A stretch of DNA of 64,000 nt from Bryobacterales bacterium (GCA_965205595.1 CBDBHI010000021.1:17007-81006); one strand, 5' to 3'; counted from the first letter of the stretch, positions 5,462 to 60,246 are shown. Made by a program: numbers and translations. Notes: generated from the letters alone by a model not told the origin.

Positions 5462-5908
5462 ATGACCTGTAGCAATAAGGTGGAACATTCACGTCGATCG
5501 TTTCTTGGACTGTCAGCCGCTACGTTAGCCATCTCGGCGAGCCCGTCAACCGCCCAGCAGAGCCCGCCCATGAAGCGGCCTAACATCCTATTCTGTATCT
5601 CCGACGACCAGTCCTGGCTACATACCAGCGCGTCCGGAGATGCCGTTATCAAGACCCCGGCGTTCGACCGCGTTTCCGCAAACGGCGCCCTCTTTAAAAA
5701 CGCATTTTGTGACGCGCCTACCTGCGGCCCTTCCCGCAGCGCCATCCTAACCGGTCAACCGATCTGGCGCTTGGAAGAAGCCGGGAATATCCATTCCACG
5801 CTTCCCAAAAAGTTCGCGACCTACGCCGGCCTACTCGAGGAGGCCGGTTACGCGATCGGCCATATGAGCAAGGGCTGGGCCCCAGGGCGCTTGGAACCCG
5901 GCGGTCGC
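5462..5908 (+). pseudogene. Sulfatase (S1 family), N-terminal fragment, interrupted by the rve-type IS
   Basis: Tat signal SRRSFLGLSAATL, PNILFCISDDQ, and the FGly site CDAPTCGPSRSAILTG. The frame leaves sulfatase-like sequence at 5909, where the IS end begins. Confidence 0.8.
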
Positions 5909-7521
5909 CGTCCTCTTTTCCAATCGAAAGATGAGCCTGCAGGAGGCAGGCGAAGGTAGCTGTGGGCAGGAGGGATTATAGCTCGGATTGGGGCTTGAGG
6001 TTGAAGCCCGTTGTGGGGCCCGTAGGGCGGGGTGAGGGGGATTGCATAAGGGGGAAGGGGCGGCAGCCCCAGTCCCCCTTTGCAGCCATCCCAGGCGAGA
6101 CCCCACGGCCGTCTTCGGACGTGGGCCGGAGGAGCCGACAACGCCTCGGGTCGGGGCGTTGTCTAGCGCGTGCGCCAGCAGATCGCGAGGTCTTTGCAGA
6201 CGCGTTGCAGTTCGTTGCGCTGAGCGTCGAGTTGCTCGGCAAACTCGGTGTCGGAACAAGTGTCCGCTCGCGCTTGGAGCTTCTTGAGCGAGCGATCCGC
6301 GCGCAGGCCGCGCTGCTCGGCGGGCAGGCTGAGCAGCTTTTCCCACGGCGTGCTCCACTCGGCGTACACCTTGCGCAACTTGCCGCGGCGGTCTCGGCGC
6401 TCGCTGGCGAAAGCGCATGGGCGATGAAAATTCAAGTACGGGTTGAGCCACTGGCGGTAGAAGGTGTCGATCGCCTGCGTCGCTTCCGAGGGCAAAAACT
6501 GGTAGCCCATCCACTTGCGCACCACCGCGCCGTTCTTGGTTTCGACCAAGGCATTGTCGTTCGAACGGCGCGCGCGAGACTTCGTAAATTCAATTCGCAA
6601 CTTCTCGAGCAGTTTAGCGGTTTGATGGTTGACGAATTCGCTGCCATTGTCGGAGTGAAAGCCGCGAACGATAAATGGAAATTGTTCCAAAAGGCCTTCC
6701 AGCAAGGGAATGAGGTGATTTTCGTTGATGCGTTGGACACAGCCGACGGCCTGCCACTGCGTCACTTCGTCGACCACGTTGATGCTGTAGGCGCCTTTTT
6801 CGCCTTCCTGTTCGGGCGAGTGCACGGTGTCGATGCGCAGGTAGCCCGGACGTCCTCGCGGCTCGGGTTGGCGGCGTTCGCCGATCGCCACGGGCGTGGG
6901 ACGGGTCTTGTCGAGATGCAAACTGTGACGTTGGTAGACGGCTCTTTTTCGCAAGTTGTACAGCTGGCCCACGGACAATTCGGCCAGGCGTCGAAACTCT
7001 TTGCGGCCGTAGATCTGGAACTCGCGTTGGAGAATGCGGCGGGTGGCCGGCCCCGAGAGGCGCTGATGAACTCGATCGACGTGCGCCAGTAAGACGCTGT
7101 CGGCGCGTGTGTACTTGCTGGGAAAACGGCGCCGCCGATAGGCCCTCGGACGGACGCAACGCGTGTGCAAGAACTGTCCGATCAGGCGGGTGAGTTGCGC
7201 GCGGCTTAAGCCCGTGAGCTTAGCGAGATAACGCCGCAGGAGACCCTTGACGGAGCGCTTCTGGTCGGCATAGTGATGCCGCTTCAAGACGCTTTCGACG
7301 AGCGCATATTTGTCGCTTCGATTGCCGCCCTCGAAGGCGACGGATTGGCACCCGTCGAGAAAACACTCGATCTGCTCCAGACTCAGCGATTCGGCTTGCT
7401 GCACGGCGACTCCCATCGCCCGCAGCTGCTCTGTTCCTGACCACCCAACGGATCCCCGTCAGGCTCATCTTGTATTGGAATCGCCCTCCCCTTCAGGCTC
7501 ATCTTGTATTGGACAAGACGA
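5909..7521 (-). mobile_element. rve-type (DDE integrase-core) insertion sequence, copy A (~1.6 kb); IS family not assigned
   Basis: Terminal IRs: CGTCTTGTCCAATACAAGATGAGCCTG at the transposase-proximal end, and CCTCTTTTCCAATCGAAAGATGAGCCTG (reverse complement) at the distal end. The proximal end carries the 20-mer CAGGCTCATCTTGTATTGGA twice (7460-7479 and 7494-7513). A 7-bp direct repeat CGGTCGC lies at 5902-5908 and 7522-7528. Confidence 0.75.
6163..7416 (-). CDS. DDE transposase with integrase core (rve) domain, IS copy A
   Basis: 417 aa with GYLRIDTVH, FHSDNGSEFVN and NDNALVETKNG (D, D, E region). It is a paralogue of 49832..51085. Confidence 0.85.
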   Translation of the reverse strand: MGVAVQQAESLSLEQIECFLDGCQSVAFEGGNRSDKYALVESVLKRHHYADQKRSVKGLLRRYLAKLTGLSRAQLTRLIGQFLHTRCVRPRAYRRRRFPSKYTRADSVLLAHVDRVHQRLSGPATRRILQREFQIYGRKEFRRLAELSVGQLYNLRKRAVYQRHSLHLDKTRPTPVAIGERRQPEPRGRPGYLRIDTVHSPEQEGEKGAYSINVVDEVTQWQAVGCVQRINENHLIPLLEGLLEQFPFIVRGFHSDNGSEFVNHQTAKLLEKLRIEFTKSRARRSNDNALVETKNGAVVRKWMGYQFLPSEATQAIDTFYRQWLNPYLNFHRPCAFASERRDRRGKLRKVYAEWSTPWEKLLSLPAEQRGLRADRSLKKLQARADTCSDTEFAEQLDAQRNELQRVCKDLAICWRTR

Positions 7522-7528
7522 CGGTCGC

Positions 7529-7603
7529 AATCCGACGGGTGACAACTTCGAAAACTTCGAGGCCTTCATGGGGCAGAAGGACGAAGACCAGCCGTTCTGC
7601 TTC
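7529..7603 (+). pseudogene. Sulfatase pseudogene, 25-codon continuation after the IS
   Basis: Reads NPTGDNFENFEAFMGQKDEDQPFCF, in frame with ...GRLEPGGR at 5908 once 5909-7528 is removed. Sulfatase-like sequence stops at 7603, where the hairpin-repeat cluster begins. Confidence 0.65.
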
Positions 7604-46432: not shown

Positions 46433-47014
46433 ATGCTTGATACTCCGACACTACTCAAGATGCTGGCCTCATTCGCGATTGGATCGATTCCATTCGCGGT
46501 GGTCGCCATGTGGGGCTCGGGCACAAGTATTCGCGACGTTGGTTCCGGCAACCCCGGTTTCAACAATGTTTTGCGGTTTTCAAAGCCGCGCGCGCTGGTC
46601 GCACTTATCGGCGACATGGCCAAGGGCTATGTGCCGGTCATGTTGTTTTTCGCGGCTGACGACCCGCTGAATATTGGTTGGCTGTATGGCCTTTGCGCCG
46701 TATTCGGACACTGCTACTCGCCGCTGCTCAAGTTCGACGGCGGGAAGGGCATCGCGACATCTTGCGGCGTGATGTTGCGTTTGTATCCAGTCTGGGCGCT
46801 GGTAGCTCTGGCGTTTTTCGTATTATTCCGGGCCTTAGGGAGCCGGCGGAAGTGGCCCCAAAGGGGAGCGATGGCGTCGATTGTGACTTGGATCTTTTTC
46901 ACGATCGTGATGTTCGTGCAATTTGGATCAGCGCACGGCGTATACGCCCTGCTGATGACGGTTTTTTTGACTTGGCGACATAAGTCGAATATCGTAGATC
47001 TGGTGGCGAACTAG
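46433..47014 (+). CDS. plsY: Glycerol-3-phosphate acyltransferase PlsY
   Basis: GSIPFAVV, GSGNPGFNNVLR and FDGGKGIATSCG are the PlsY motifs. Confidence 0.85.
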   Translation: MLDTPTLLKMLASFAIGSIPFAVVAMWGSGTSIRDVGSGNPGFNNVLRFSKPRALVALIGDMAKGYVPVMLFFAADDPLNIGWLYGLCAVFGHCYSPLLKFDGGKGIATSCGVMLRLYPVWALVALAFFVLFRALGSRRKWPQRGAMASIVTWIFFTIVMFVQFGSAHGVYALLMTVFLTWRHKSNIVDLVAN

Positions 47015-47049
47015 CCGGCATTTCTCACCACGTGGCGAGAAATGCGGCT
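47013..47049. repeat. 37-bp hairpin made of the two MITE arms only (copy 3, internal part absent), between convergent stop codons
   Basis: The sequence is AGCCGGCATTTCTCACCACGTGGCGAGAAATGCGGCT. The left TA belongs to the plsY TAG stop (47012-47014). The right TA belongs to the patatin TAA stop (47049-47051, minus strand). Confidence 0.75.
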
Positions 47050-49862
47050 TACGCGCCGGCCGCGACCGACGCCGGCTTCGTTTCTTCGGGCCAACCGTCG
47101 CTGGGCCAACCATTCTTAAACGCCACCTCGCCGATGTGATGTCCAATCGCGCGGTAGGCTTCGAACTGGGCCTCGTCGAAGAATTGATCGCCCGTAGATT
47201 CGTGAGGAAACGCCTTATTGCGATCGCGGTAGTCGCAGATTTCGTTTCCTTCCGATCCTGTGAACGACGATTTGAGATAGACCAGTTGCCCCTCTTCACC
47301 ACCGCCGTAGTGGATCTTGCCAACTGCTCCGTGCGCGCTGCTGAGACCGTTGGCGTCCTTGCGTAGTTTCTCGAGATCAAGCTCAATCTCAATGCCCATA
47401 TCAATTCGAGCAAACCGCAACACCTGCATGAGACCGCCGAAGCGCATCTCTGGATCCGCTTCGCCATCGACCACGATGATGCGCTCACAGCGCCGACGCA
47501 ACAGCTCATAGAGAGCCAGGTTTTCGAGATGACCACCGTCAGAGACATTCACATACCGAGTCTTCTCGTTTGTAGCGCCAAAAGCCTCTCTGACCAAATA
47601 CCAAGCCCAGGCCGTGAGCAACGAGTTGAATCGCGAGCTAGCGAGTTTCGCCGGATTTGGAAGCCAGTAGCCAAGGCGAACGTTCAGAAGGGTCATCACG
47701 AAAACCAAAGCGGGCACTGTCGTCGTTCCCATGTTTGGTGCGGCGGCGGCTCCTGAGATTGCCATCGCTGTGCCGAGATCTACATGACTATCAGCCTTCT
47801 CCAACTCCGAGGTCTTGCAGTAACCGGTCCGCCGGCCGCCCGTATAACATTTGCTGAAGAAAAAGAAGTCCGCGCGCCTTCCGCGAAGATCGCGATAATC
47901 GCTGCCTTGTAGGTTCAGCGTTACGTTGATCAAGTGGTATGGCGCCTTTTGCCGCTTTTCGCCTTCGTAGAGCATTGAAAGTTTTTGAGCGTCCGCTTGC
48001 TCGGCAACGCCGTCCATACCGCTGTGGATCAGATAGGCGTTGCTGAGCCGGTCGCGATAGAAAGGATGGACCGACGAACGATTCACATCCACCATCACCA
48101 TGAAAGCGAGCAGGGTGAAGGTTAACAAAATAAATACGACGTCGTCCAATTCGTCCCATAGCAGATAGCAAGACGAAGCAATCTTCAACATGCTACCGCC
48201 GGCCGTCCCCGCGTATTCATCGGCGGTAGACAATAGACTGACGCTGCATGGCTCCGTAAACCAGTCCGTAAGCCCAAGCCAAACTACCCAACCGTGCCTG
48301 TCTGGAATGCCCAGATTCCAAGAGAAGTCGACCCCGCCTCGCCTAACATTGGCGGGGCGCTTGAGCGGCGTTTCACTTACTGGATCGTTCAGATCGGCGT
48401 GCAGATCCTCCGACAGATTGCCACTGTTGAGGTTCTCGATCGCCGAAATTTGCAAGGCAAACGTCGGGATAGTTTCGGAAAACTTAGTCAACTCGATAGT
48501 CGGCTCTGGCCGTATTCCTCCGCATCCATATGTCCACTCAAATGAACGCATAGCACTAGAAGGGTTAGTCAGCTCAGCTCTTACCTGACAGACTTGCGGG
48601 AACGCTCCGCCCGTGTACTCAACCCTCCACTCGGCGTGGCCGTCCTCGCCCCAGTTCGGCGGCGTTTGCTTGTCCCATCTGATACCTCGCTCGTCAAACT
48701 TTTGTACCAGGGCTTCAGGAAGTGCTTCCTCGAACTTGCCGTCCTCACCAACTTTGTCACTCAACAGAAATTGCTCGTGCATGCCGACCGATCTAGTTAT
48801 GTCGTGAGAATCGACTTGGATCACACATAGCAACAAATACACCCCAAAAATCGTGATCGGCCCCAGGGCACTGATCAGAAGCAGTGTTACTTTACCGGCA
48901 AGTGGCGAAGATTTGGAAGACGCCCGCGACAGCAACACGACCAGCAAAATCAGCGCAACCGCCACCGCACTCGCGCTCCCCGCGTTGCCCACAACGGCCG
49001 CTATCGGGTCGTGCAAAAGCTGATGAAGAGATAGTCCTATGTCGACTCGATTCGCCTCAATCGCGCGGCCAACGAGCCAACTTGCCGGGACAAACACGAC
49101 CAGCGCGCACACAAGTGTGAATGATAGTGTGAACACGCCCTCGTACCAATTTCGGCGAGCCCACTTTGCGCCTCTGCCAATTTTTGCGACGAACGGAAAA
49201 ATTATAATCGATAGTCCAAATAATCCTAAGATAAATACAATAACAAGCTGATGGATTATATTGAGATCGTGAAGAGTCTCATAGAGAACTTCCGTCATAA
49301 GAACGAGAATCATGATCCACGGCAATACCGATAGAAAGTTCACAATGATGCCGCGCACCAAGATCGCCGGAATTCGAAGCGTGTCGGCCGTACCCCCCGG
49401 GGCCAAATAGTTTCCGCTGTTCCTTAGGTGGTGAACCGCTGACGTTTCCTCCACTCCAGTTTCGTGGCGCAGCGGAAAGTTGTTCTCGCCATCGTAGGCG
49501 CAATTGGGATCATTCAACAACGAGGTAATACAGGAGCCAACAAACCCGCCGCCCGACACGGTCGACATGTAGTCCACCGACTTGAAAATCTTGTGTTTCC
49601 TATTCGCAAGTGCTTGGACGACGCCGAGGCTAATCGTCGCACTGCGGATGCCGCCGCCGGAAAAGGCCAATCCTGTCAAACCTTGTTTGGTGGACGGCGG
49701 ACCTTTGAGCGCCGCCGTGTCTATCGTCTTGTCCAATACAAGATGAGCCTGAAGGGAGGGGTGATTCCAACACAAGATGAGCCTGGAGGTAATTTGGGCA
49801 AGGTCGATTAGGAACAGGCAAACTGCGGGCGATGGGAGTCGCCGTGCAGCAAGCCGAATCAC
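47049..49862 (-). CDS. Patatin-like phospholipase with a large multi-TM insertion; 5' end displaced by IS copy B
   Basis: GLAFSGGGIRS (oxyanion loop), MSTVSGGGF (GxSxG) and VSDGGHLEN (Asp motif). About 670 aa, including at least 5 hydrophobic helices, lie between the Ser and Asp motifs. The first ~46 codons of the listed ORF (49724-49862) are IS-end sequence. Confidence 0.75.
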   Translation of the reverse strand: MIRLAARRLPSPAVCLFLIDLAQITSRLILCWNHPSLQAHLVLDKTIDTAALKGPPSTKQGLTGLAFSGGGIRSATISLGVVQALANRKHKIFKSVDYMSTVSGGGFVGSCITSLLNDPNCAYDGENNFPLRHETGVEETSAVHHLRNSGNYLAPGGTADTLRIPAILVRGIIVNFLSVLPWIMILVLMTEVLYETLHDLNIIHQLVIVFILGLFGLSIIIFPFVAKIGRGAKWARRNWYEGVFTLSFTLVCALVVFVPASWLVGRAIEANRVDIGLSLHQLLHDPIAAVVGNAGSASAVAVALILLVVLLSRASSKSSPLAGKVTLLLISALGPITIFGVYLLLCVIQVDSHDITRSVGMHEQFLLSDKVGEDGKFEEALPEALVQKFDERGIRWDKQTPPNWGEDGHAEWRVEYTGGAFPQVCQVRAELTNPSSAMRSFEWTYGCGGIRPEPTIELTKFSETIPTFALQISAIENLNSGNLSEDLHADLNDPVSETPLKRPANVRRGGVDFSWNLGIPDRHGWVVWLGLTDWFTEPCSVSLLSTADEYAGTAGGSMLKIASSCYLLWDELDDVVFILLTFTLLAFMVMVDVNRSSVHPFYRDRLSNAYLIHSGMDGVAEQADAQKLSMLYEGEKRQKAPYHLINVTLNLQGSDYRDLRGRRADFFFFSKCYTGGRRTGYCKTSELEKADSHVDLGTAMAISGAAAAPNMGTTTVPALVFVMTLLNVRLGYWLPNPAKLASSRFNSLLTAWAWYLVREAFGATNEKTRYVNVSDGGHLENLALYELLRRRCERIIVVDGEADPEMRFGGLMQVLRFARIDMGIEIELDLEKLRKDANGLSSAHGAVGKIHYGGGEEGQLVYLKSSFTGSEGNEICDYRDRNKAFPHESTGDQFFDEAQFEAYRAIGHHIGEVAFKNGWPSDGWPEETKPASVAAGA

Positions 49863-51335
49863 TGAGTCTCGATGAGATCGAGAGTTTTCTCGACGGGTGT
49901 GGGTCCGTCGAGTTCCAGGCCGGAAGTCGAGCGGATAAATACGCGCTCGTCGAAGGCGTCCTGAAGAGGCATCATTATGCCGACCAGAAGCGCTCGGTTA
50001 AAGGATTGTTGAGACGCTTCCTGAGCAAGCTAACCGGCTTAAGCCGCGCCCAATTGACTCGCCTCATCGGGCAGTTTTTGCGCGAAAAGTGCGTTCGGCC
50101 GACAGCCTATCGAAGGCGCCGCTTCCCCACCAAGTACAGCCGCGCCGACATCGTTCTCCTGGCGCATGTCGACCAAGTACAGCAACGTCTCTCCGGGCCG
50201 GCGACGCGTCGCATTCTCCAGCGCGAGTTCCAAATCTACAACCGCAAGGAGTTCGAACGCCTTGCCGAACTGTCGGTGGGACACCTCTACAACTTGCGCA
50301 AACGCGCCGTCTACCGGCGACACAGTTTGCATCTCGACAAGACTCGACCGACACCCGTGGCGATCGGCGAACGCCGCCAACCCGAGCCGCGAGGACGTCC
50401 GGGCTACCTGCGCATCGACACCGTGCACTCGCCCGAACAGGAAGGCGAAAAAGGCGCCTACAGCATCAACGTGGTCGACGAAGTGACGCAGTGGCAGGCC
50501 GTCGGCTGCGTCCAACGCATCAACGAAAATCACCTCATTCCCTTGCTGGAAGGCCTTTTGGAACAATTTCCATTTATCGTTCGCGGCTTTCACTCCGACA
50601 ATGGCAGCGAATTCGTCAACCATCAAACCGCTAAACTGCTCGAGAAGTTGCGAATTGAATTTACGAAGTCTCGCGCGCGCCGTTCGAACGACAATGCCTT
50701 GGTCGAAACCAAGAACGGCGCGGTGGTGCGCAAGTGGATGGGCTACCAGTTTTTGCCCTCGGAAGCGACGCAGGCGATCGACACCTTCTACCGCCAGTGG
50801 CTCAACCCGTACTTGAATTTTCATCGCCCATGCGCTTTCGCCAGCGAGCGCCGAGACCGCCGCGGCAAGTTGCGCAAGGTGTACGCCGAGTGGAGCACGC
50901 CGTGGGAAAAGCTGCTCAGCCTGCCCGCCGAGCAGCGCGGCCTGCGCGCGGATCGCTCGCTCAAGAAGCTCCAAGCGCGAGCGGACACTTGTTCCGACAC
51001 CGAGTTTGCCGAGCAACTCGACGCTCAGCGCAACGAACTGCAACGCGTCTGCAAAGACCTCGCGATCTGCTGGCGCACGCGCTAGACAACGCCCCGACCC
51101 GAGGCGTTGTCGGCTCCTCCGGCCCACGTCCGAAGACGGCCGTGGGGTCTCGCCTGGGATGGCTGCAAAGGGGGACTGGGGCTGCCGCCCCTTCCCCCTT
51201 ATGCAATCCCCCTCACCCCGCCCTACGAAGCCACAAATAGCTGTAGCCGCCGACCTCAACTCACGCTATAATCCCCCTCAACCCGCAGCTGCTTCGCCTC
51301 TCTCCTTCAGGCTCATCTTTCAATTGGAAAAGAGG
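49724..51335 (+). mobile_element. rve-type insertion sequence, copy B (inverted relative to copy A)
   Basis: Same terminal IRs as copy A (TCGTCTTGTCCAATACAAGATGAGCCTG ... CAGGCTCATCTTTCAATTGGAAAAGAGG) and a doubled 20-mer at the left end. I could not find a target-site duplication. Confidence 0.75.
49832..51085 (+). CDS. DDE transposase with integrase core (rve) domain, IS copy B
   Basis: 417 aa. It differs from copy A at about 25 of the first 162 residues. It is identical at protein level from residue 163 to the end. Confidence 0.85.
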   Translation: MGVAVQQAESLSLDEIESFLDGCGSVEFQAGSRADKYALVEGVLKRHHYADQKRSVKGLLRRFLSKLTGLSRAQLTRLIGQFLREKCVRPTAYRRRRFPTKYSRADIVLLAHVDQVQQRLSGPATRRILQREFQIYNRKEFERLAELSVGHLYNLRKRAVYRRHSLHLDKTRPTPVAIGERRQPEPRGRPGYLRIDTVHSPEQEGEKGAYSINVVDEVTQWQAVGCVQRINENHLIPLLEGLLEQFPFIVRGFHSDNGSEFVNHQTAKLLEKLRIEFTKSRARRSNDNALVETKNGAVVRKWMGYQFLPSEATQAIDTFYRQWLNPYLNFHRPCAFASERRDRRGKLRKVYAEWSTPWEKLLSLPAEQRGLRADRSLKKLQARADTCSDTEFAEQLDAQRNELQRVCKDLAICWRTR

Positions 51336-51429
51336 CCATCCCCAGGTTTTCACGCCTCTTCTTGATTTCATTCAACTCGGCTGGAAACACCTCTTCCTTG
51401 AACATGGCGCTAGATTCTGAGTCGTGCAT
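51336..51429 (-). pseudogene. Probable original 5' end (31 codons) of the patatin gene, separated by IS copy B
   Basis: Reads MHDSESSAMFKEEVFPAELNEIKKRRENLGM from the ATG at 51429, 38 bp after the upstream gene. It joins in frame to ...VDTAALKGPPSTKQGLTGLAFSGGGIRS when 49724-51335 is removed. Confidence 0.45.
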
Positions 51430-51467
51430 ATATGCTCCCGTCGCCTCGTCGGTCGTGAAATACTCGG

Positions 51468-52817
51468 CTACGATGGTTTTTCAGCAGCACCGCTTGCCCC
51501 GCTCGGCGATGGCGGCTCGGGCGCGCATGATTCTTTGTCGGAACCGTCTAAACACCAGCCATCGGGTTCTTTGAAATCTTCGGGAAACTTCATTCCTTCG
51601 GGGAACTGCACCTTCTCCGGACTCTCGCTCTTGGAATTCTTGTCGCGGCGATATCGGGAAGTTTCTACGTAAACCGCCTTTCTGACCCGGTTCATTGCGC
51701 CCAGCGGTCGATGCGCCGGCAGCGAGTGCCAGGGCTTGTACGCGAGGCTCTCGCAGAAGTTGTTCTGTTCCTTGGTGTTGAATTCCTGTGCCGGAATCTC
51801 TATTTTCGCCACAGTTACAAACGGAGATTCTTCCTCCGACCATATGACCGTCGAGTCTTCGACGGGCATGTTTGAGCCCGGCACCTGAACCTGGAAATCG
51901 AAACACGCCGCTGCTTTTCTAATGTCGTGATCCATGGTGTTGCGCAGAAGGTCCGGGTCGCATTCAAACAAGGACGGCCCAAGCGGCATCTGGCACCAGA
52001 ACGGGACTCCCTCGGGTTCAAAGGGTGGACCAGAACTGCACTCGACCGGTTCCACCCGATATTTGATGTTGTTATCAGGGCCATGCTTGTAGGCCGTCAG
52101 GCTGTTGAATTGTGTTTCCACTAAGCTGTCTGGTGGGCGGCCTAGCAGTGGTCCCGCGCGGATCAACCATTGCCACTTCCATCTAAATGGATTCAAGCTC
52201 CCTTCGTGAAAGTAGGCAAGCACCCGGTCTTCCTCCTGATACCGAGTGAAGGTTACGTACTCTTCAAGGCTCGTAAGGAAAAAGGCCTCGGCGTTCATCA
52301 GGATGAAGTCTTGGGTCTTGGCATCCTTCTCTGCCTCGAGTAGCTTCTCGCCTTCAACGCCCATCACCTTGATCGCCATGCCGCGGGCGTCCTTCTCAGT
52401 GTCTGACTGCTTCAGCTCTTTGCCGCTCGAGTAGCGAATCCACGACTTGTACTCACCAGGCTTTGCAAACAGCCCGTGACTGTATTTGCGGTCCAATTCG
52501 GGAACCTCGAAAGTGGCTTTCAGGCATCCGTGTGCCTTGGCGTGCGCGTCCCGCCGATAGGTTTCGTCCCCTTCCTTGACTTTCAATTCTTCGCGGCGTT
52601 TGTTGGTCATGGCGACGCCGTTGGCGATGATCTGAGCGATGTATCGCTCTTCATCCGGGCCGATCTTCTCTCCGATTTCGCCGCCTCCACTGTTGTTGCT
52701 GTTCAGGCTATACAAGCCATACGAGCAGGTCATCAGGATTGACAAGAGGTACAAAGTGATCAGCCACTTTATTCCCTGCCGGCCTTTGCGCCAGATTGAG
52801 CCCCAGTTCCACGTCAT
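51468..52817 (-). CDS. Catalase-related haemoprotein (small, membrane-anchored)
   Basis: N-terminal TM (WLITLYLLSILMTCSYGLY). Catalase-core-like YRRDAHAKAHGCLKATFEV, WIRYSSG, DARGMAIKV and QDFILMN. Confidence 0.7.
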   Translation of the reverse strand: MTWNWGSIWRKGRQGIKWLITLYLLSILMTCSYGLYSLNSNNSGGGEIGEKIGPDEERYIAQIIANGVAMTNKRREELKVKEGDETYRRDAHAKAHGCLKATFEVPELDRKYSHGLFAKPGEYKSWIRYSSGKELKQSDTEKDARGMAIKVMGVEGEKLLEAEKDAKTQDFILMNAEAFFLTSLEEYVTFTRYQEEDRVLAYFHEGSLNPFRWKWQWLIRAGPLLGRPPDSLVETQFNSLTAYKHGPDNNIKYRVEPVECSSGPPFEPEGVPFWCQMPLGPSLFECDPDLLRNTMDHDIRKAAACFDFQVQVPGSNMPVEDSTVIWSEEESPFVTVAKIEIPAQEFNTKEQNNFCESLAYKPWHSLPAHRPLGAMNRVRKAVYVETSRYRRDKNSKSESPEKVQFPEGMKFPEDFKEPDGWCLDGSDKESCAPEPPSPSGASGAAEKPS

Positions 52818-52839
52818 TTGATCGATCCTTTCTCTCTGC

Positions 52840-55152
52840 TTAGCGGCACGGTTTAAACTCTTCCACGGGCGTATCCTCGTGCACCTTCAGGTACTCAACC
52901 AGCGCCATGCGTTCTTCGTGTGAAAACTCGGGTCCAATGACGCCGTACTGTGGGGGGTCGCCGTACTTCCACTGGACATAGCCGGAGCGAAATTCGTGCC
53001 CGGTATTGGTGTTGCCTGGGATCTTCGTGTCGAGCAGGAAGCCGTCGACAGTCGGAGGTTTCTGCTCGTAGCCGACCTTCTCCGTATCAAAATCTCGGTG
53101 ACCAACGAAAAAGGTTTTCGGCCTTTCATCGACTGGCGAAAGCAAGTCGTAGAGGCTTGGCACCGAGCCGTTGTGAAGAAATGGCGGCGTCGCCCAGATT
53201 CCAGCGAGAGGCCGCGCTTTATACGCCAATGGCTCTTGCGGCAAATCAAGGATTCCAAATCCCTCGATGTCGGCCCTCTTTTCGTCGGGAATTTCGTGTT
53301 CCTCGAAAAATTGCTTGCGAATCAGCCGCCCAGCGATGAGCAGGCCCTGTCCGGTCGAGACGCTCTTTACGTCTACTTTGTTCAAGTATTCGTCGATCCA
53401 GGCTTCCGGCTCGGTATTAAACTTTTCCAAACAGGCTTCCACCTCCGCCAACGGTTTTGCGACGTTTGGATCGTCTAGTGCCTTCAATCTTGCGGACTCT
53501 GCTTCGAGGTACGCGATATACGGTTTCCGGCGCTCGTGATGCTCTTTGAGATCGGGCCGCAGCAAGTCCTGCGCTTCCATGTTGGTGAGCCCGGTTTTCG
53601 TAAAATCGAAACGATAATTTACGAAGTTGAGCGCAGCCTTGGGATCGGTTCCGATGTCATAGATCGGTAGGATGCTGCCCCACCAGTGCGGAAATCCGTC
53701 AGGGTACGATTCGGCGTACTTTGTGCCGTACGCGCTGTCGTATTGGTCTAGATATTCCCTTCCTTTAAGCGGTGCCTCCCATGCTCGCAGGGCATCACTG
53801 GCTCGGTGAGGCCCGTGACATTTCCGGCAATGAGTGTTGAAGAGAATTTGGCCCTTCTCCGCCCGCTTCTTATTGATCTCGCCAAGTAGTTCCTCGGGCC
53901 ATTTTGGTGGCTTCAAATCCCACATCGCCTTTTCAATCTTGTCGAGATCGTATAGCCGAGTTGAGCTGTGAAATCGTTCTTTCGCGGGAACAGCTCCGCC
54001 GTCGTCACTGACCAACCGATAGACCGCGCCCACGCCGAGCGTTTCGCCGACGTTCCTCGCCATGGGCTGTGATACAGAGGCGCCGTACTGGACCCAGTCG
54101 AATTTCCAGATCTCCCACACTGGCGGATAGCTTACGGGTGCATCTCCTAACCTGTAGTTCTCCAAATCGAGGCGATCCCCAAATGTCCGGTTAGCAATAC
54201 GGCCGATCGCGTCGGTGCGTCCGAATCCTTCTGTGATCGGATATAGCTTTTTCCGTTTGTCTTTGGACGCCTGAGCCCACATTGCATTCTTGACGATCCC
54301 AAGTTCTTTCCACAGCGCCGCTCGTTCATCTCGCGAGTGCCCAACCCCGAGCACGTTCTCCGCGAAGCGGGCGAACTTCAGCGGATTCCAGTACGTGCTT
54401 ACCATTGAGGCAAACAGCACTGGCGCGAAGTGTGGCGGACTATCCGCCGTAAAGGCATGCATTGCCTGGCCACCGTCAATACGGATGCCATACCGTTTAC
54501 CATCAACGAGTTGGGTCACCTCCCCTGTATGGCAGGCCGCGCAGGTGATGTCCAACAAGTAATCGCCGACCTCGCGGCTATAGTGCTTGGTAAACCCAAG
54601 TGGCAGCTCGTCAGGGTTATGTTTCGTCGCTGGGTCGACTATAAAACCGTACGCTTTCATATGGTCGGCGTCGGCAAAGCGCTTCTTGCCCCACGGAATT
54701 TCTAGGTTGACGAACCAGCTATATCTGAGATTGAAGAGCGTCGTCCCTTGGGGCGTAAAATAGTACGTCTGGCGAGATTCGGACTCCCGGCCCTTTCCCC
54801 AGCCCTGTCCAAGATAGACAGTTTCATCTACCGGCTCATACTTTGGGATTTGAGTACTTGGGTTAAACACAAGCCAATACATTCCCAGTGACCCCAAAAT
54901 GGCGACGGCCACGACCAAACGCACACCCTGCTTAATGAACCACCAAAGCGACTGACGAAAGAGCCATCGAATAAAGTGAATGATGTTGCCTGGTAGAGCA
55001 ATCACCGGTTCGACAACTCGAGTGACGAGCGCCCTGAGCTCAGCAATCAGGTTCCACACAAAGCTCCAGCAGAATTTAAAGGTCTTCCACAGGATGCGTC
55101 CGACGAATTTCAAAAACCTCAACGCTGGGTTTACGTCTTGTGATTCCGGCAC
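52840..55152 (-). CDS. Membrane-anchored di-haem c-type cytochrome of the CCP/MauG/RoxA-like family
   Basis: 770 aa. N-terminal hydrophobic helices, two CXXCH sites (ITCAACHTGEV and NTHCRKCHGPH), YYFTPQGTTLFNLRYSWFVNLE, VSYPPVWEIWKFDWVQY and GIWATPPFLHNGSVPSLYDLL. Confidence 0.7.
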   Translation of the reverse strand: MPESQDVNPALRFLKFVGRILWKTFKFCWSFVWNLIAELRALVTRVVEPVIALPGNIIHFIRWLFRQSLWWFIKQGVRLVVAVAILGSLGMYWLVFNPSTQIPKYEPVDETVYLGQGWGKGRESESRQTYYFTPQGTTLFNLRYSWFVNLEIPWGKKRFADADHMKAYGFIVDPATKHNPDELPLGFTKHYSREVGDYLLDITCAACHTGEVTQLVDGKRYGIRIDGGQAMHAFTADSPPHFAPVLFASMVSTYWNPLKFARFAENVLGVGHSRDERAALWKELGIVKNAMWAQASKDKRKKLYPITEGFGRTDAIGRIANRTFGDRLDLENYRLGDAPVSYPPVWEIWKFDWVQYGASVSQPMARNVGETLGVGAVYRLVSDDGGAVPAKERFHSSTRLYDLDKIEKAMWDLKPPKWPEELLGEINKKRAEKGQILFNTHCRKCHGPHRASDALRAWEAPLKGREYLDQYDSAYGTKYAESYPDGFPHWWGSILPIYDIGTDPKAALNFVNYRFDFTKTGLTNMEAQDLLRPDLKEHHERRKPYIAYLEAESARLKALDDPNVAKPLAEVEACLEKFNTEPEAWIDEYLNKVDVKSVSTGQGLLIAGRLIRKQFFEEHEIPDEKRADIEGFGILDLPQEPLAYKARPLAGIWATPPFLHNGSVPSLYDLLSPVDERPKTFFVGHRDFDTEKVGYEQKPPTVDGFLLDTKIPGNTNTGHEFRSGYVQWKYGDPPQYGVIGPEFSHEERMALVEYLKVHEDTPVEEFKPCR

Positions 55153-55215
55153 TGTGTCCTCCTTGCGACTTCAATATGGAGGGAACTCATTCCCATCAAT
55201 TCCAGGTCGGGCCCA

Positions 55216-56205
55216 CTATTCGAACGCCGGCTTGAGCCCAGCGATCTTAACCGTGGCCTTGACTAACAGACCCGCGGCGCCAAGCGTCACGTAAAGAGTT
55301 TTCCTGTCTGCGCCGCCGAAACAAACGTTTGAAGGCAACGGACCAAACTTGATGCCGTCGAATTCGATGAAGTCGATAATCGCGCCGTCAGGTGACACGA
55401 CGGTAATGCGGCCATTTGCAATATGGTTCGAGGCGTCGGGACGAAAACCCATGGGCAGCATCGTCGCCACATACAGGTTGCCGTCCTCGTCGACAGCCAT
55501 CGAGTCCAAGTCGCCGCCGATGTCGGCTGTCAAAAGGAATGAGCCGTCTTTTGTGTACGGATTTAACCGAAGTTCGCCGGGAGCGGACAACTCGTAGTAG
55601 ATAATCCGTCGAGTGTATGTTTCGGCGATGTATAGACGCGATTCGTCGGGAGAAAGTGCGATCCCATTAGGGCGTCCCGCGAAGGGGAAAATTTTCTCCT
55701 TGTTACTGGACCCGTCGGCCTTGGCATAGCAGATGCCGGTAATGTCGCGCTCACGGCCCCTGGTTTTTCCCCAGTCCGAAATCCAAAAACCGCCCGCGGA
55801 ATCGAAGACGAGATCGTCCGGCCCGCATAGCTTGTGAGTAGTCCCGTCCTCGGCTTCGAACGACGTATAGACGGTTTCGATTGTATCGCCGGAGATTTTT
55901 TGGATAGATCCGGTGGTGTAGTCCGTCGGTTCGTCCACCGGAATCCATACGCCCGGCAATGGCTCGGTCCACTCAAAGCCGCCGGAATTGGCAATGTAGA
56001 TCGCGCCGTCCGGGCCGATCGCGGCACCGTTTGGTGAACCACCAAGTTTGGCGACGCGCTCTTTGCTGCCATCCGCCGGATCGACCCGAACCACATCACC
56101 GCTCTTAAGCTCCGTCACCAGAACCTTACCGTTGGGCAACGCGAACGGTCCCTCTGGATACTCTAATCCTCCACAAACAGCCGTGAAATCTGAAACTTTT
56201 AGCAT
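55216..56205 (-). CDS. SMP-30/gluconolactonase/LRE-like six-bladed beta-propeller protein
   Basis: 329 aa. GLEYPEGPFALPNGKVLVTE, GSPNGAAIGPDG, GRPNGIALSPDE and repeated blade pattern. Confidence 0.75.
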   Translation of the reverse strand: MLKVSDFTAVCGGLEYPEGPFALPNGKVLVTELKSGDVVRVDPADGSKERVAKLGGSPNGAAIGPDGAIYIANSGGFEWTEPLPGVWIPVDEPTDYTTGSIQKISGDTIETVYTSFEAEDGTTHKLCGPDDLVFDSAGGFWISDWGKTRGRERDITGICYAKADGSSNKEKIFPFAGRPNGIALSPDESRLYIAETYTRRIIYYELSAPGELRLNPYTKDGSFLLTADIGGDLDSMAVDEDGNLYVATMLPMGFRPDASNHIANGRITVVSPDGAIIDFIEFDGIKFGPLPSNVCFGGADRKTLYVTLGAAGLLVKATVKIAGLKPAFE

Positions 56206-57027
56206 TTTTGCCTTTACCTCTTACTTCCTTTTGCGCTAAAGCCTACCCGCCACACCGACGTCGGTGAGTTCGTCTAAGCTCATTGGACTAAATAAATCAA
56301 TCTACCCCGATCTCCGCGTTGCTCGATGCCAATCGCGGGGTCGTGAGCGAGCCCCATGTTTGCTAAAAAAACGTATGTAAGTGGACGGCAAGAATCGCTA
56401 GCTGCTGCTGTCTTTGACCTCCGTTTGCGCCGTAGCCGGCTACGAAAGTGTACTCCCACGTAAGTTTTATTGCAACAAGTCAACGATTTCCCCGTTATTG
56501 GTGTATGGCAGTAGCCATGAGCAATCCAACGGCCAAACCGCTTTCACTTCTTGTCCGCTCTGCGCCTCTCGGTACGGATATCGAGAAATCGACCCCAGCG
56601 AACGCTCCTGGATTCGTCCAATATCGGATGGGCGCTAGGCTGCCGCCACAGCCGAAAAGTCCGTTATGTGCGTCCGTCGACGGGCTCGATTAGGCCTGTC
56701 CGGGCGCAGGCTGAGAATAGAATACGCGCGGAATCGCCAACAAAAACGCTGCTATTGACCCGTTTACGACCGTCGACCTGATATCAGCGATACACCTTAC
56801 AAGGAGTCGTGCGAACTCCTGCCGCGGAAGCCCAGCCGCAGCCGATAGCTGTCCCGCCGAAAAGAGTCGTACTGGCAAAACGATCTACGGTCAAACGCAA
56901 AAAATCTGTCGACGAAAGGTCAATCGCGGCCGAGTGCCTGACCCCTTCCGTTTGCACCTGTGTTTCCGTCCGTTTACACAAAGCGCGGGCAGATCAGCGT
57001 TATTAGCCGCGTTCGAACGCCAGGGCG

Positions 57028-57033
57028 TAGAAT
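57028..57033 (+). promoter_or_regulatory. -10-like hexamer TAGAAT 10-15 nt before the start of the PSCyt gene
   Basis: Read directly. Same hexamer and spacing as before aroE. Speculative. Confidence 0.2.
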
Positions 57034-57042
57034 AGAAACGGT

Positions 57043-60000
57043 TTGGTGATGCGACTGGCCGCTTTAATTTTGGTCGCCTACGGGACGATCGTCTGCCCGG
57101 CGGCGGCTGCCGAGATTGACGTCGAGTTCTTCGAAAAGAACGTACGTCCGCTGCTGGCCGAGAAGTGCTACTCGTGCCACAGCGCCAAGGCATCGAATCT
57201 ATTCGCCGGATTGAGGGTCGACAGTAAGGCCACGTTGCTCCGCGGTGGCGATTCCGGTCCGGCGTTGCTTCTCGGGGATTCTGCCGGCAGCTTGCTACTG
57301 AAAGCGCTACGCGGCGAGGCGAAAGTGCCGATGCCGCCTACGGGGCGCTTGTCTGACGAGCAGATCGCCACGGTTGCCGCCTGGGTGGATGCCGGCGCTC
57401 CTTGGCCCGACGAGACGGTCGCCGATATGCCAAACCCGTCCGAGGCTTTTGACCTCGAGGCGCGGCGTTCTTCCCATTGGGCTTGGCAGCCGGTAAAGCC
57501 GGTCTCCGCGACGGGCGTCGATAGTTTCATCGACGCCAGATTGCGTGAGAAAGAGCTGCTGCCGGCTGCGCCAGCCGACCGCTACACTCTGCTGCGACGG
57601 CTTTCGTACGCGATTACCGGCCTACCACCCACTCCTGATGAGCTTCGAGATTTTGCGAATGACTCCTCACCCGGTGCCTTTGAAAAGAGGGTTGACCGGC
57701 TGCTGGCGTCCGACCATTATGGCGAGCGTTGGGCGCGGCATTGGATGGATTTGGTTCGCTATACCGAATCGCATGGCAGCGAAGGCGACCCCGACACGTT
57801 GGAAGCCTGGCGCTATCGCGACTACTTAATTCGGGCTCTAAATCTGGATGTCCCCTACGATCAGTTGATTCGCGAGCATTTGGCGGGAGATTTACTGCCC
57901 AACCCGCGCATCAACGCGAAAGACGGCATCAACGAATCGGTCGTAGCCACCGCGCACTATCGCATGATCGAACACGGCTTCCAGCCCGTTGATCCGTGGG
58001 AAGACCGTGTCAAATGGACCGACAATCAGGTCGACGTATTTTCAAAAGCGTTTCAGGGGCTGACGATTTCGTGCGCTCGTTGCCACGACCACAAGTTCGA
58101 CGCCATTAGCCAAAAAGACTTCTACGCGCTATTCGGGATTTTCAAAAACGCCCGGCCGACGCAGCGCGCGATCGATTCGCCTGATGTGCTTTGGAAGAAT
58201 CGCTCCGAATTGGCCGACACAAAACAAAAGGTCAAGGATGCTCTTGCCGACCAGTGGCTGGCGGCAGCAGGCGATGTTGTCGAACGGTTGAAGACGGGCG
58301 ATTCGTCGTTCGACACTTTGCTCGAACAGGCGGCGTGCGATCAAGAGAGTCCTCTGTTCCCATGGTTCGAATTGCGTGATCGCGAACCGCAAGACGTTCG
58401 CGCCGGTTGGAGGCGACTGGTCGACGGCTGGGAGCGAGAGCGGGCTCGGCGGGTCGAATTCAACAGTGCGAAATTCAAAATGCTGTGGAACGTGGCGAAA
58501 GAATATCCGAACTGGGTCCGCCATGGTACGGGACTGTCCGAAACAGCGACGGCGCCCGGCGAGTTTTCAATCACGCCCTCGGGCGATCGAGTAGTCGAAG
58601 CCATCTATGGAGCGGGAGCGCATACGGCGCTGCTATCGAGACGTCACAACGGCGTGTTGCAGACTTCACGATTCAAGATCGACACAAACAACGTCAGCTT
58701 TCGCGTGCAGGGCGGAAATTTCAGCGTAGTGCGGTTGATTGTCGAAAACTACGCGGTACCGCGAGGTGGCATCTATCACCAGCGATATTCCCCGAAAAAA
58801 GACGAGCCTGTCTGGTACACCTGGGACACAACGTTCTGGAAGGGTTTCAGCGCCTATATCGAATTCGCGACACTTGACGACTCGACAAACTTCTTACTTG
58901 ATAAAGAGGACTCCCGCAAGAAACCGCGGCCGAAGCCGGTTCGTGACGGCAGATCATTCTTTGGCGCAACCGCCGTAGCGTCCCACGACGGACGGATGCT
59001 GCCCGAGAATGTCTCGCCGGCTGTCTTGTACTTGACGCAGGGCGAGGCACCGGACGATGCGGCTGGACTTGCGTGGCTCTATACCGAACGGCTGAAGTCA
59101 TCAGTCGAGGCATGGCGCAGCGGCGAGATGAGCGAAGAGCAGGCCGCATTTCTCGACTTCTTTGTACGCCATTCGTTGTTGCCGGTAAGCGCTGAGGGCA
59201 GCTCCACGCTTGGGGCGCTCGTCGCCGATTATCGACGGCTAGAGGACGAAGTCCCCACGTATCGGCGAGCGCCCGGTGTCGTCGAAGAGGCTGGCGACGA
59301 CCAACAGTTGCTGATTCGAGGCGGACACAACAATCCCGGCGACCCGGTTCCGCGACGCTACTTGACCGCGCTTGGAAGTCAGCGATACGACAATCCCGCG
59401 ATGATGCGTTTACGATTGGCGGACGAGGTGGCGTCGGCTGACAATCCGCTGACCGCCCGCGTGATGGTCAATCGGATTTGGCGGCACATGTTTGGGCGCG
59501 GCATCGTCGGCTCGGTCGACAACTTTGGCCGGCTCGGCGACAAGCCCTCGCACCCGGAATTGTTGGACTACTTGGCTACAGAGTTTGTGCGTGACGGCTG
59601 GTCGATTAAGAAAATGATTCGGCGTCTGGCTCTAACAGATGCCTACCAGCGCGGCAGTGACGGGTCCGAAAAAGCAGCGACCATCGATCCGGATAATTCG
59701 CTGTTGCAACACATGCCGATTCGGCGTTTGGAAGGAGAAGTGATTCGCGACAGCCTGCTTGCCATTTCAGGTCGGCTTGACCACACCGTGGAAGGTCCGT
59801 CGATCAACGTCTACTATGCCTTCGCGAAGGGGAAAACGAAGGGTGATCGACCGAAGGGCCCGCTAGACGGTGACGGGCGACGCAGCGTCTATCAAGAAAT
59901 TCGGCGCAATGCCCACAATCCGTTTCTCGAAGTGTTCGATCAGCCGAAGCCGGCCTCGACGCGTGGGCAACGCGATTCGACAAACGTTCCCGCGCAATCG

Positions 60001-60246
60001 CTAACGATGCTGAATAGTCCCTTGGTTATTGAGCAAGCTGACGTCTGGGGCAAGCGCCTAGCGGAGCAGTCGGCGGCCTCCGGATCGAAAATCATCGATA
60101 TGTTTTTGCAGGCCTTGGGACGGGCGCCGACCGCCGAGGAAGCTGACCGCGCGCTCACTTATATGGGCAGCGCCGATGACGCAGGTGCATGGGCGAACCT
60201 GGCGCACTCACTCTTTAATCTCAAGGAATTCATCTACGTCCGGTAG
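57043..60246 (+). CDS. PSCyt1-DUF1549-DUF1553 (planctomycete-type cytochrome c domain) protein
   Basis: 1067 aa. [44 protein letters not shown], and [39 protein letters not shown]. Confidence 0.85.
   Translation: [1067 protein letters not shown]

Follow-up and report, generated by a model that had tools for sequence, protein, structure and literature searches.

A conserved bacterial gene cluster pairing a RoxA-like di-haem cytochrome c with a small catalase-fold protein and joined by differing acyl-lipid enzymes

Introduction

Bacterial oxylipin biology has so far rested on a few lipoxygenases and on the diol-synthase operon of Pseudomonas aeruginosa. In that oleate-diol synthase operon, PA2077 is an oleate 10S-dioxygenase and PA2078 a hydroperoxide isomerase (7,10-diol synthase), and both are periplasmic RoxA-clade di-haem proteins of the 'FadCcp' subfamily (PMC4496055). 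Here we describe a 9-kb operon on the minus strand of a 64,000-nucleotide stretch of DNA from a Bryobacterales bacterium (GCA_965205595.1, CBDBHI010000021.1:17007-81006; hereafter the window, with positions counted from its first letter). The operon encodes a lactonase-like propeller (SGL), a di-haem cytochrome c (DIH), a small catalase-fold haem protein (CAT) and a patatin whose gene is split by an insertion sequence (IS). The locus belongs to a conserved, widespread cluster to whose core different lineages add differing acyl-lipid enzymes, here the split patatin. All components of the cluster are of known kinds, and its logic resembles that of known oxylipin systems.

PA2077 and PA2078 resemble DIH as large (60-70 kDa) monomer-type, periplasmic di-haem c proteins of the RoxA clade, and they share with it two CXXCH sites, a P(Y/F)(F/L)HNGSVP motif, a C-terminal His ligand about 58-60 residues later and a similar haem-to-haem spacing. 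The likeness extends to the role proposed for DIH and CAT, in which consecutive enzymes would make and then convert a fatty-acid hydroperoxide with neither a reductant nor a lipoxygenase. The second step in P. aeruginosa is performed by a paralogous di-haem protein, whereas the partner here is a catalase-fold haem-b protein; unlike the P. aeruginosa operon, this cluster also adds a lactonase, a kinase/TPR sensor and lipases, and DIH is predicted to be membrane-anchored. RoxA of Xanthomonas sp. 35Y (4b2n) is the only DIH homologue with a solved structure. Four colinear segments can be aligned, covering both haem sites, the MauG-type motif and the C-terminal GH..EY(I/L)K, but DIH scores only 39 bits against the RoxA equivalog cut-off of 1000 and the ligand spacing differs. 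Unlike DIH, RoxA is secreted and acts on polyisoprene without CAT, SGL or lipase partners.

CAT resembles the coral and cyanobacterial allene-oxide synthase (AOS) or hydroperoxide lyase-lipoxygenase fusions (1u5u, 3dy5) in its catalase core, its distal His/Asn, its proximal Arg-x-x-x-Tyr and its coupling to a presumed peroxide-supplying oxygenase. It differs from coral AOS in having a di-haem cytochrome c rather than a lipoxygenase as partner, Val/Ala-His in place of Thr-His, four conserved Cys and a predicted membrane-anchored, periplasmic location, and the two are about 14% identical. The best match to CAT in both sequence and structure (profile E 5e-10) is MAP-2744c of Mycobacterium avium ssp. 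paratuberculosis (3e4w, 3e4y), a 33-kDa minimal catalase core that acts as a peroxidase on organic hydroperoxides. MAP-2744c is 17-18% identical to CAT, soluble and cytoplasmic, and has no known DIH, SGL or lipase context. A similar gene set is found at the y4iL locus of plasmid pNGR234a, which gave CDD family cd08152 ('y4iL_like') its name: a catalase-family protein 35% identical to CAT, a hypothetical protein, a di-heme-cytochrome C peroxidase and a patatin-like phospholipase are encoded on one strand. The catalase gene is presumably y4iL itself. That locus differs from the present one in its non-homologous patatin subfamily, its lack of SGL and the position of CAT before DIH.

The best structural match of the patatin is human cPLA2 (1cjy, 5iz5), which likewise has a Ser/Asp dyad with a large insertion between the two residues. 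In cPLA2-alpha a 'cap' lies between S228 and D549, and the fatty acid released feeds oxygenase cascades. The corresponding insertion in the patatin is a multi-helix transmembrane (TM) bundle plus about 150 poorly modelled residues; the patatin has no C2 domain and is 13-15% identical to cPLA2. SGL has a full-length homologue (E 4e-53) with the catalytic Asp kept in Rpa3624 of Rhodopseudomonas palustris (7ris, 8djf), a Ca-dependent hydrolase of hydrophobic gamma-, delta- and epsilon-lactones (PMC9843451).

Results and Discussion

The operon belongs to a cluster conserved across phyla

The initial annotation had described four tightly spaced, co-oriented genes on the minus strand between 47049 and 56205. 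The open reading frames (ORFs) are located where it had placed them, with intergenic gaps of 63 nt (55216 to 55152), 22 nt (52840 to 52817) and 38 nt (51468 to 51429), and profile searches put all four proteins in named families. The features of the locus are as follows.

55216-56205, minus strand: SGL, 329 aa, six-bladed lactonase-like propeller (Pfam SGL, 6.4e-32), first gene of the operon
52840-55152, minus strand: DIH, 770 aa, RoxA-like di-haem cytochrome c (NF040606, 485.4 bits; PF21419, 3e-17)
51468-52817, minus strand: CAT, 449 aa, y4iL-like 'catalase family protein' (Pfam Catalase, 29.2 bits)
51336-51429, minus strand: patatin 5' fragment, codons 1-31 (MHDSESSAMFKEEVFPAELNEIKKRRENLGM), including the upstream copy of the target duplication (51336-51340)
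49726-51335: IS481-like insertion sequence, about 1.61 kb, with an rve transposase ORF at 49832-51085 (plus strand, 417 aa)
47049-49725, minus strand: patatin body, codons 32-921 and stop, including the downstream copy of the target duplication (49721-49725)
56206-57042: divergent intergenic region of 837 nt upstream of SGL, the sole long non-coding gap

Conservation of this arrangement was examined in a CAT-centred scan with the CAT alignment as query and one genome per species, which returned 80 loci (loci and proteins are cited below by L and P numbers). By tblastn, about 38 of 81 CAT-centred loci have DIH adjacent to CAT. Of the 32 loci with the CAT closest to that of the window, 26 contain DIH, and the order SGL-DIH-CAT is kept in 18 loci. 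The CAT-centred loci come from Woeseiaceae, Oceanospirillales, Pseudoalteromonas, Colwellia, Thalassotalea, Arenicella, several Acidobacteriota, Pseudomonas, Methylophilaceae, Brevundimonas, Myxococcota and Planctomycetales, and those with the DIH-CAT pair span Planctomycetota, Acidobacteriota, Alpha-, Beta- and Gammaproteobacteria and Myxococcota. The di-haem, catalase-related and propeller genes, which the initial annotation had linked from the window by itself, thus co-localise in at least six phyla or classes. On a Ralstonia megaplasmid, CAT occurs alone.

When the neighbouring ORFs were clustered, one more gene proved recurrent: 15 loci encode, directly upstream of SGL, a TM/TolB_N-like/TPR sensor that is in many cases fused to a Ser/Thr kinase (for example, L005 4815-6281, L007 3-2387, L030 4808-6289, L167 3757-5965, L168 3844-6018 and L169 3602-5824); no homologue of this kinase/TPR sensor is present in the window. 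Among six DIH-centred look-ups, three loci read kinase/TPR-SGL-DIH-CAT with overlapping stop and start codons, two of them with a divergent patatin of the window type and one with a PlsC/OlsA-type acyltransferase after CAT. The other three are loci at which a catalase-fold domain and DIH are fused, each with a kinase upstream. About 11 of the top 120 DIH homologues are such fusions, 1050-1075 aa long, in which an N-terminal catalase-fold domain of about 350 residues (24-25% identical to CAT, E 1e-17) is followed by a TM segment and a DIH domain (47% identical); examples are encoded at L164 8001-11201, L165 8001-11219 and L166 7001-10192 (proteins P0335, P0328, P0313, P0350 and P0351). Fusion loci carry a kinase-AAA_16 gene in the place of the sensor. 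The cross-phylum synteny, together with the gene fusions, puts the arrangement far beyond chance. The core of the cluster is SGL-DIH-CAT, with the kinase/TPR sensor usually ahead of it elsewhere.

Regulators of the GGDEF, sigma-54, SpoIIE and kinase/TPR types adjoin the cluster. TonB-dependent-receptor-like outer-membrane barrels adjoin the DIH-CAT pair in L001 and L009.

DIH is a RoxA-like di-haem cytochrome c

DIH scores 485.4 bits against NCBIfam NF040606, 'di-heme-cytochrome C peroxidase' (cut-off 150), matches Pfam RoxA-like_Cyt-c (PF21419) with an E-value of 3e-17, and has more than 2400 homologues in many phyla. A profile of 22 of these homologues matches RoxA (4b2n) in four colinear segments with an E-value of 2e-19. 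The two CXXCH sites, CAACH208 and CRKCH446, are accompanied by the motif WATPPFLHNGSVPSL. Haem-c ligation, which had been left to be checked, is reflected in the alignment: C204/C207/H208, C442/C445/H446, H660 and H719 are invariant among the 22 homologues, as are N661, G662 and W346. H660 lies within PFLHNGSV, and H719 (GHEF) aligns with RoxA GGH641DF. The gaps between successive haem ligands (H208, H446, H660 and H719) are 238/214/59 residues in DIH, which is near the 245/178/58 given by the published positions in PA2077, the sole basis of comparison with that protein, and unlike the 199/123/124 of RoxA.

The two CXXCH sites, the motif and the RoxA-like affiliation noted initially all stand, whereas the several N-terminal TM helices reduce to one clear helix (residues 76-96) that follows amphipathic helices. 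DIH is predicted to be anchored in the inner membrane with its haem domain facing the periplasm. Membership in the canonical cytochrome c peroxidase (CCP)/MauG family did not hold up: Pfam CCP_MauG (PF03150) gave no match to DIH at E<=0.01, the alignment of 22 homologues contains no conserved Met, and CCPs in the PDB match the DIH profile marginally (E 0.02-0.2). Orthology with the rubber oxygenases was also rejected, because DIH scores 39-55 bits against RoxA/RoxB/RoxC equivalog cut-offs of 900-1000.

CAT keeps the haem-site residues of catalases

CAT gives a partial match to Pfam Catalase (29.2 bits; cut-off 25) and falls in a family with over 1400 members, the 'catalase family proteins'. 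R89, D90, H92, R379 and Y383 are invariant in this family and N175 nearly so. R89/H92 and N175 align with the catalase HAKG and NN(T)P segments (distal His and distal Asn), and R379/Y383, in which the Arg stands four residues before the Tyr, align with the proximal Tyr segment of 3e4w; the proximal Tyr and distal His expected of a catalase relative are therefore in place. The AlphaFold2 (AF2) model of CAT (pLDDT 85) has a catalase core fold that lacks the NADPH and C-terminal domains. In Foldseek its top match is MAP-2744c 3e4y (7e-14, TM-score 0.69 on the target), followed by catalases and coral AOS 1u5u (5e-11, TM-score 0.59 on the target). The distal pair is the Val/Ala-His of true catalases, as opposed to the Thr-His of coral AOS. 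Thus the catalase-related core reported initially is well founded, but the N-terminal TM helix is only moderately hydrophobic in the window protein; most homologues have a clear TM segment or signal anchor there. The signal anchor and the four conserved Cys point to a periplasmic haem enzyme.

No Lipoxygenase Pfam family member was found within 10 kb on either side in annotated copies of the locus, as the initial annotation had also noted, and the conserved partner of CAT is DIH. Catalase domains of the y4iL-like type are also fused to LodA-like, H2O2-producing oxidases (PMC4417212). We observed such domains inside plasmid genes annotated as LodA/GoxA-family CTQ-dependent oxidases (CTQ, cysteine tryptophylquinone) and as 'peroxidase family protein' (NZ_CP025505.1 64272-65237 and NZ_CP029834.1). 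It seems that y4iL-like domains generally pair with oxidases that generate peroxide.

SGL resembles a hydrophobic-lactone hydrolase

The identification of SGL as an SMP-30/lactonase-like propeller is upheld by its match to Pfam SGL (6.4e-32) and by Rpa3624 (7ris/8djf), its closest solved homologue, which aligns over residues 9-317 (E 4e-53). In the alignment to 8djf, SGL keeps the equivalent of the catalytic D229 (LDSMAVDEDG) and the Ca-site Glu in YPEGP. Rpa3624 is Ca-dependent, prefers hydrophobic gamma/delta-lactones such as gamma-decanolactone, and is inactive on gluconolactone and N-acyl homoserine lactones (PMC9843451). No signal peptide was detected in the N-termini of SGL from 17 syntenic homologues, and the protein is therefore predicted to be cytoplasmic.

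The patatin is split between its catalytic motifs by membrane helices

The ORF at 47049-49862 in the window begins with a match to Pfam Patatin (PF01734; 33.7 bits, cut-off 27.7) in which only profile positions 1-52 of 191 are aligned. The N-terminal half of the restored protein contains the oxyanion-hole motif GGGIRS and the nucleophile elbow TVSGG. Next come a TM bundle and an insert of some 150 aa that is modelled poorly, and the C-terminal half contains the catalytic Asp motif SDGGHLEN. Residues G54-S59 and S85-G90 are invariant in the family alignment, as are the Asp (~D759, in SDGGH at ~758-762) and the two Gly that follow it. The GGGxRS loop and DGG motif described initially are thus present and invariant, but the elbow is not an intact GxSxG: its sequence is S-T-V-S-G-G, in which the Ser and following Gly residues are invariant and Thr replaces the first Gly throughout the family. 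The unusual distance between the Ser and Asp motifs was also correctly noted, with about 670 residues and several TM helices between S88 and ~D759. The AF2 model of the patatin (pLDDT 76.5, pTM 0.79) has human cPLA2 1cjy (1.4e-5) and then 5iz5 as its best Foldseek matches, and more than 2160 homologues were found. Judged by its motifs and model, the protein is a split, multi-TM, integral-membrane, cPLA2-like predicted phospholipase.

Acyl-lipid enzymes of several kinds accompany the cluster

A patatin of the window type is encoded at 12 cluster loci, and at least four arrangements are seen: the gene may lie downstream, either on the same strand or convergent, or upstream, either on the same strand or divergent. 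In L164 the patatin gene lies downstream of the fusion gene and is translationally coupled to it. In seven loci from Methylophilaceae and other lineages, an LCAT-like alpha/beta-hydrolase lipase is encoded directly upstream of DIH. Four loci have an Acyltransferase_3 (Acyl_transf_3) gene between DIH and CAT, and in L168 CAT is followed by a PlsC/OlsA-type acyltransferase. Three marine Pseudomonas loci have a fatty-acid cis/trans isomerase (CTI; Pfam CTI, E 1e-293) about 1.5 kb from DIH-CAT (L025 12643-14967, L026 13680-15959 and L031 8611-10890), and a divergent sigma-54 activator gene lies ahead of the DIH-CAT pair in these loci. CTI, too, is a periplasmic haem-c enzyme, and its substrates are unsaturated acyl chains. 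In Sinorhizobium fredii NGR234, plasmid pNGR234a has a patatin gene downstream of DIH whose product shows no detectable homology to the window patatin. Unless acyl lipids are what the haem pair acts on, it is difficult to account for such non-orthologous recruitment, involving three unrelated lipase types, acyltransferases and CTI.

The region immediately before the catalase-family gene of pNGR234a contains a fragment (L170 4505-4852) that resembles the C-terminal part of another DIH, with 38% identity over 123 residues. It looks like the remnant of a duplicated or rearranged di-haem gene.

A proposed function and its alternatives

We propose that the cluster specifies a lipoxygenase-free, periplasm-facing and reductant-free module that would oxygenate acyl lipids and convert the resulting hydroperoxides, with a cytoplasmic SGL acting on hydrophobic lactones; we regard the case for this proposal as evenly balanced. 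DIH, anchored in the inner membrane with its c-haems in the periplasm, would function as an O2-activating oxygenase of the RoxA/FadCcp type and turn an unsaturated acyl chain into a lipid hydroperoxide or cleavage product. The acyl substrate could be a free fatty acid released by the patatin or, in other lineages, by the LCAT-like lipase, or could possibly still be esterified. The His/Asn/Tyr haem site of the adjacent CAT would then convert or reduce the hydroperoxide, as coral AOS and MAP-2744c do with hydroperoxides of fatty acids or other organic hydroperoxides. In-chain hydroxy acids might lactonise after uptake and chain shortening, and the cytoplasmic SGL would reopen the lactones. No step in this scheme needs an external reductant, which fits the absence of a reductase or electron-donor gene from the cluster. 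An oxygenase role for DIH, already suspected from the window, gains by analogy from the RoxA-clade precedent of PA2077/PA2078 (PMC4496055) and from a ligand spacing near that of PA2077. This three-step scheme is the best-supported reading, given this precedent, the parallel with coral AOS-lipoxygenase, the lack of a reductant gene or electron-entry haem, and the pairing of y4iL-like domains with O2-activating oxidases. A fuller, eicosanoid-like oxylipin cascade is a tentative and rather doubtful extension. In such a cascade the cPLA2-like lipase would release an unsaturated fatty acid, DIH would dioxygenate it in the periplasm, CAT would rearrange the hydroperoxide to an allene oxide, epoxy-alcohol, diol or aldehyde, and the lactonase would turn over lactones, all under Ser/Thr-kinase control. 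Lipids produced in this way would serve in signalling or in membrane remodelling in Planctomycetes, Acidobacteria, marine Gammaproteobacteria and rhizobial symbiosis plasmids.

Several observations weigh against the proposed module. The substrate and chemistry of DIH and CAT are inferred from distant relatives, RoxA being matched only in short segments and CAT being 14-20% identical to solved structures. A cytoplasmic location is predicted for SGL and the catalytic domain of the patatin but a periplasmic one for DIH and CAT, so that lipid flipping or uptake would be needed, and no gene for it was seen. The catalase-fold domain of the fusion proteins has no signal peptide, and a conserved Glu replaces the proximal Tyr in all five sequences examined; the domain may lie on the cytoplasmic side, with altered or no haem ligation. 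The fusions therefore demonstrate association rather than the same chemistry, and we do not take them to prove that catalysis is sequential. In most cluster loci no lipase is encoded within 10 kb, and none of 80 metagenome loci centred on the closest relatives of the patatin contains DIH, CAT or SGL. This reciprocal scan, in which no conserved neighbour of the patatin was detected, rules out the patatin as a core member and makes it a facultative accessory. Finally, the recurrent acyltransferases, CTI and stress-type regulators fit a role in repair equally well.

In a repair or detoxification role, DIH and CAT would be peroxidases that remove H2O2 or lipid hydroperoxides on the outer side of the inner membrane, damaged chains would be excised by the patatin or the LCAT-like lipase, the acyltransferases would re-acylate the lysolipid, and a PON-like SGL would hydrolyse lipid-derived lactones, with no need for an oxygenase. 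We consider this possible but somewhat unlikely. The NCBI family name of DIH is that of a peroxidase, and CAT has the distal pair of true catalases rather than that of coral AOS. Lysolipid acyltransferase, Acyl_transf_3 and CTI neighbours are typical of membrane homeostasis, the kinase/TPR, GGDEF, sigma-54 and SpoIIE-type regulators adjoining the cluster suit it, and the lack of a lipoxygenase within 10 kb comes naturally with repair. However, a peroxidase cycle needs an electron donor, and the cluster lacks any conserved gene for a cytochrome c, a cupredoxin or a reductase. DIH also lacks the conserved Met of the His-Met electron-entry haem of bacterial CCPs as well as a Pfam CCP_MauG match, and the characterised enzymes of the RoxA clade are oxygenases or isomerases, not peroxidases.

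Alternatively, DIH could oxidise some hydrophobic compound other than an acyl lipid, for instance a polyisoprenoid, carotenoid, quinone or exogenous polymer, with CAT clearing a peroxide by-product, SGL taking a lactone product and the lipases as loose accessories. The only solved relative of DIH cleaves poly(cis-1,4-isoprene), a scavenger role is the simplest one for y4iL-like domains fused to H2O2-producing LodA-like oxidases, and both the scarcity of lipases among cluster loci and the TonB-dependent-receptor-like barrels of L001 and L009 are in keeping with such a substrate. We nevertheless judge it improbable, since DIH-CAT has independently gained CTI and members of three unrelated lipase and two acyltransferase families, DIH falls far below the RoxA/RoxB/RoxC equivalog cut-offs (39-55 bits against 900-1000), and its ligand spacing is like that of the fatty-acid enzymes PA2077/78 and not that of RoxA. 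It is very improbable that there is no functional module at all, either because the adjacency arose by chance or because the patatin serves as an anti-phage effector or toxin and has nothing to do with the haem enzymes. Patatins are known as defence effectors, and the 80 patatin-centred loci have no conserved neighbours; chance is contradicted for the core by the synteny of SGL-DIH-CAT across phyla with overlapping stop and start codons, and further by the fusions of a CAT-like fold to DIH and by the translational coupling of the patatin to the fusion gene in L164. The anti-phage reading of the patatin was itself rejected, as none of the four proteins matches PADLOC and a patatin-centred neighbourhood is not conserved.

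If the oxylipin reading is true, the cluster would represent a phylogenetically broad second route in bacteria, with more than 2400 DIH homologues and a classic symbiosis plasmid among its carriers. It would also give a role to three families known from annotation only: the y4iL-like 'catalase family protein', the NF040606 'di-heme-cytochrome C peroxidase' and the split multi-TM patatins. If instead the repair model is true, the cluster would be an envelope system dedicated to clearing peroxidised acyl chains, likewise undescribed in bacteria. No published description of the cluster was found in an incomplete body of literature from which subscription journals are mostly missing. Culturable carriers exist in Pseudoalteromonas, Thalassotalea, Sinorhizobium fredii NGR234 and marine Pseudomonas.

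An insertion sequence and further lesions in the operon

The IS (49726-51335, 1.61 kb) splits the patatin gene after codon 31. Its transposase matches Pfam rve (35.8 bits, 1e-8) and scores 61 bits against NCBIfam IS481, below the equivalog cut-off of 224, for which reason the element is labelled IS481-like. The terminal inverted repeats read C(G/C)TCTT(G/T)TCCAAT...AAGATGAGCC. A sister genome (L172; ENA ERZ28763718, 4.3-Mb contig) that is 99.7-99.9% identical over the locus has the empty site ...CTGGGGATGGACACGG..., relative to which the 5-bp target-site duplication (GATGG/GATAG) was defined, and an intact 921-aa patatin that begins 38 nt after CAT. The intact allele continues from the 31 residues listed above into DTAALKG..., with the junction at RRENLGM/DTAALKG. 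The empty site and intact patatin prove the displaced start at 51429, the duplication and the junction; the start had been proposed initially, and it gives the same N-terminus as the intact allele. The patatin 5' fragment also aligns with the N-termini of the L002 and L005 homologues. A perfect 16-nt inverted repeat (49740/51319) was rejected as the end of the IS because it is too narrow: a second IS copy and the L172 empty site push the ends outward. This second copy, at about 5900-7540 of the window, has the opposite orientation and encodes an intact transposase of 417 aa (6163-7416, minus strand); its centre is nearly identical to that of the patatin copy, and its ends are more diverged.

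Two further lesions were found in near-identical genomes. A 99.6%-identical IS copy sits inside SGL of L172, and a second assembly of the window strain (L163) has a stop codon at W63 and a 1-nt deletion in DIH. L163 differs from the window at nine positions over 15.8 kb, four of them within DIH. One 9-kb operon has therefore acquired three independent lesions, in the patatin (window and L163), in SGL (L172 7334-9937) and in DIH (L163 4625-6889; window 54965, 53678, 53265 and 53112). This recurrence suggests relaxed or negative selection or an IS hotspot, although the DIH differences in L163 could alternatively be assembly errors.

The initial annotation had considered the system knocked out by an IS. 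The IS is real, with terminal inverted repeats and a 5-bp duplication, and the split patatin is probably inactive because 31 conserved N-terminal residues and the operon promoter are lost. Inactivation is likely rather than proven, since a 937-aa ORF starting in the IS end (49775-49862) still encodes both catalytic motifs. In the public record the interrupted gene appears as a seemingly intact 908-aa coding sequence (P0121) whose first ~18 residues derive from the IS terminus, so that annotation alone hides the disruption.

At the start of a contig from Candidatus Sulfopaludibacter (Acidobacteria; L007 1-150), the translation is 77% identical over 26 residues to the IS terminus of the window, which indicates that a related IS abuts the cluster there too.

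Flanking sequences

The operon promoter is presumed to lie within the 837-nt region at 56206-57042. A scan for sigma-70 promoters and terminators found no sigma-70-like site and no terminator above shuffled background, and neither the operon nor its leader contains a riboswitch or RNA element matching Rfam at E<=0.1. On the other side of this region, a divergent gene (57043-60246, plus strand) encodes a PSCyt1/PSCyt2/PSD1 (DUF1549/DUF1553) cytochrome-like protein that adjoins the cluster and gives the window a planctomycete-like character. A protein of the same type is encoded downstream of the cluster, after an FHA-GAF-SpoIIE phosphatase, in two Acidobacteria (L015 12662-15076 and L054 12841-14802); this adjacency may be a coincidence, as the family is very abundant in these phyla. 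At the opposite end, plsY (glycerol-3-phosphate acyltransferase; 46433-47014, plus strand) is convergent with the patatin and lies 35 nt from its stop codon. The pairing of this phospholipid-synthesis gene with a phospholipase gene, which may be incidental, is kept in the sister genome.

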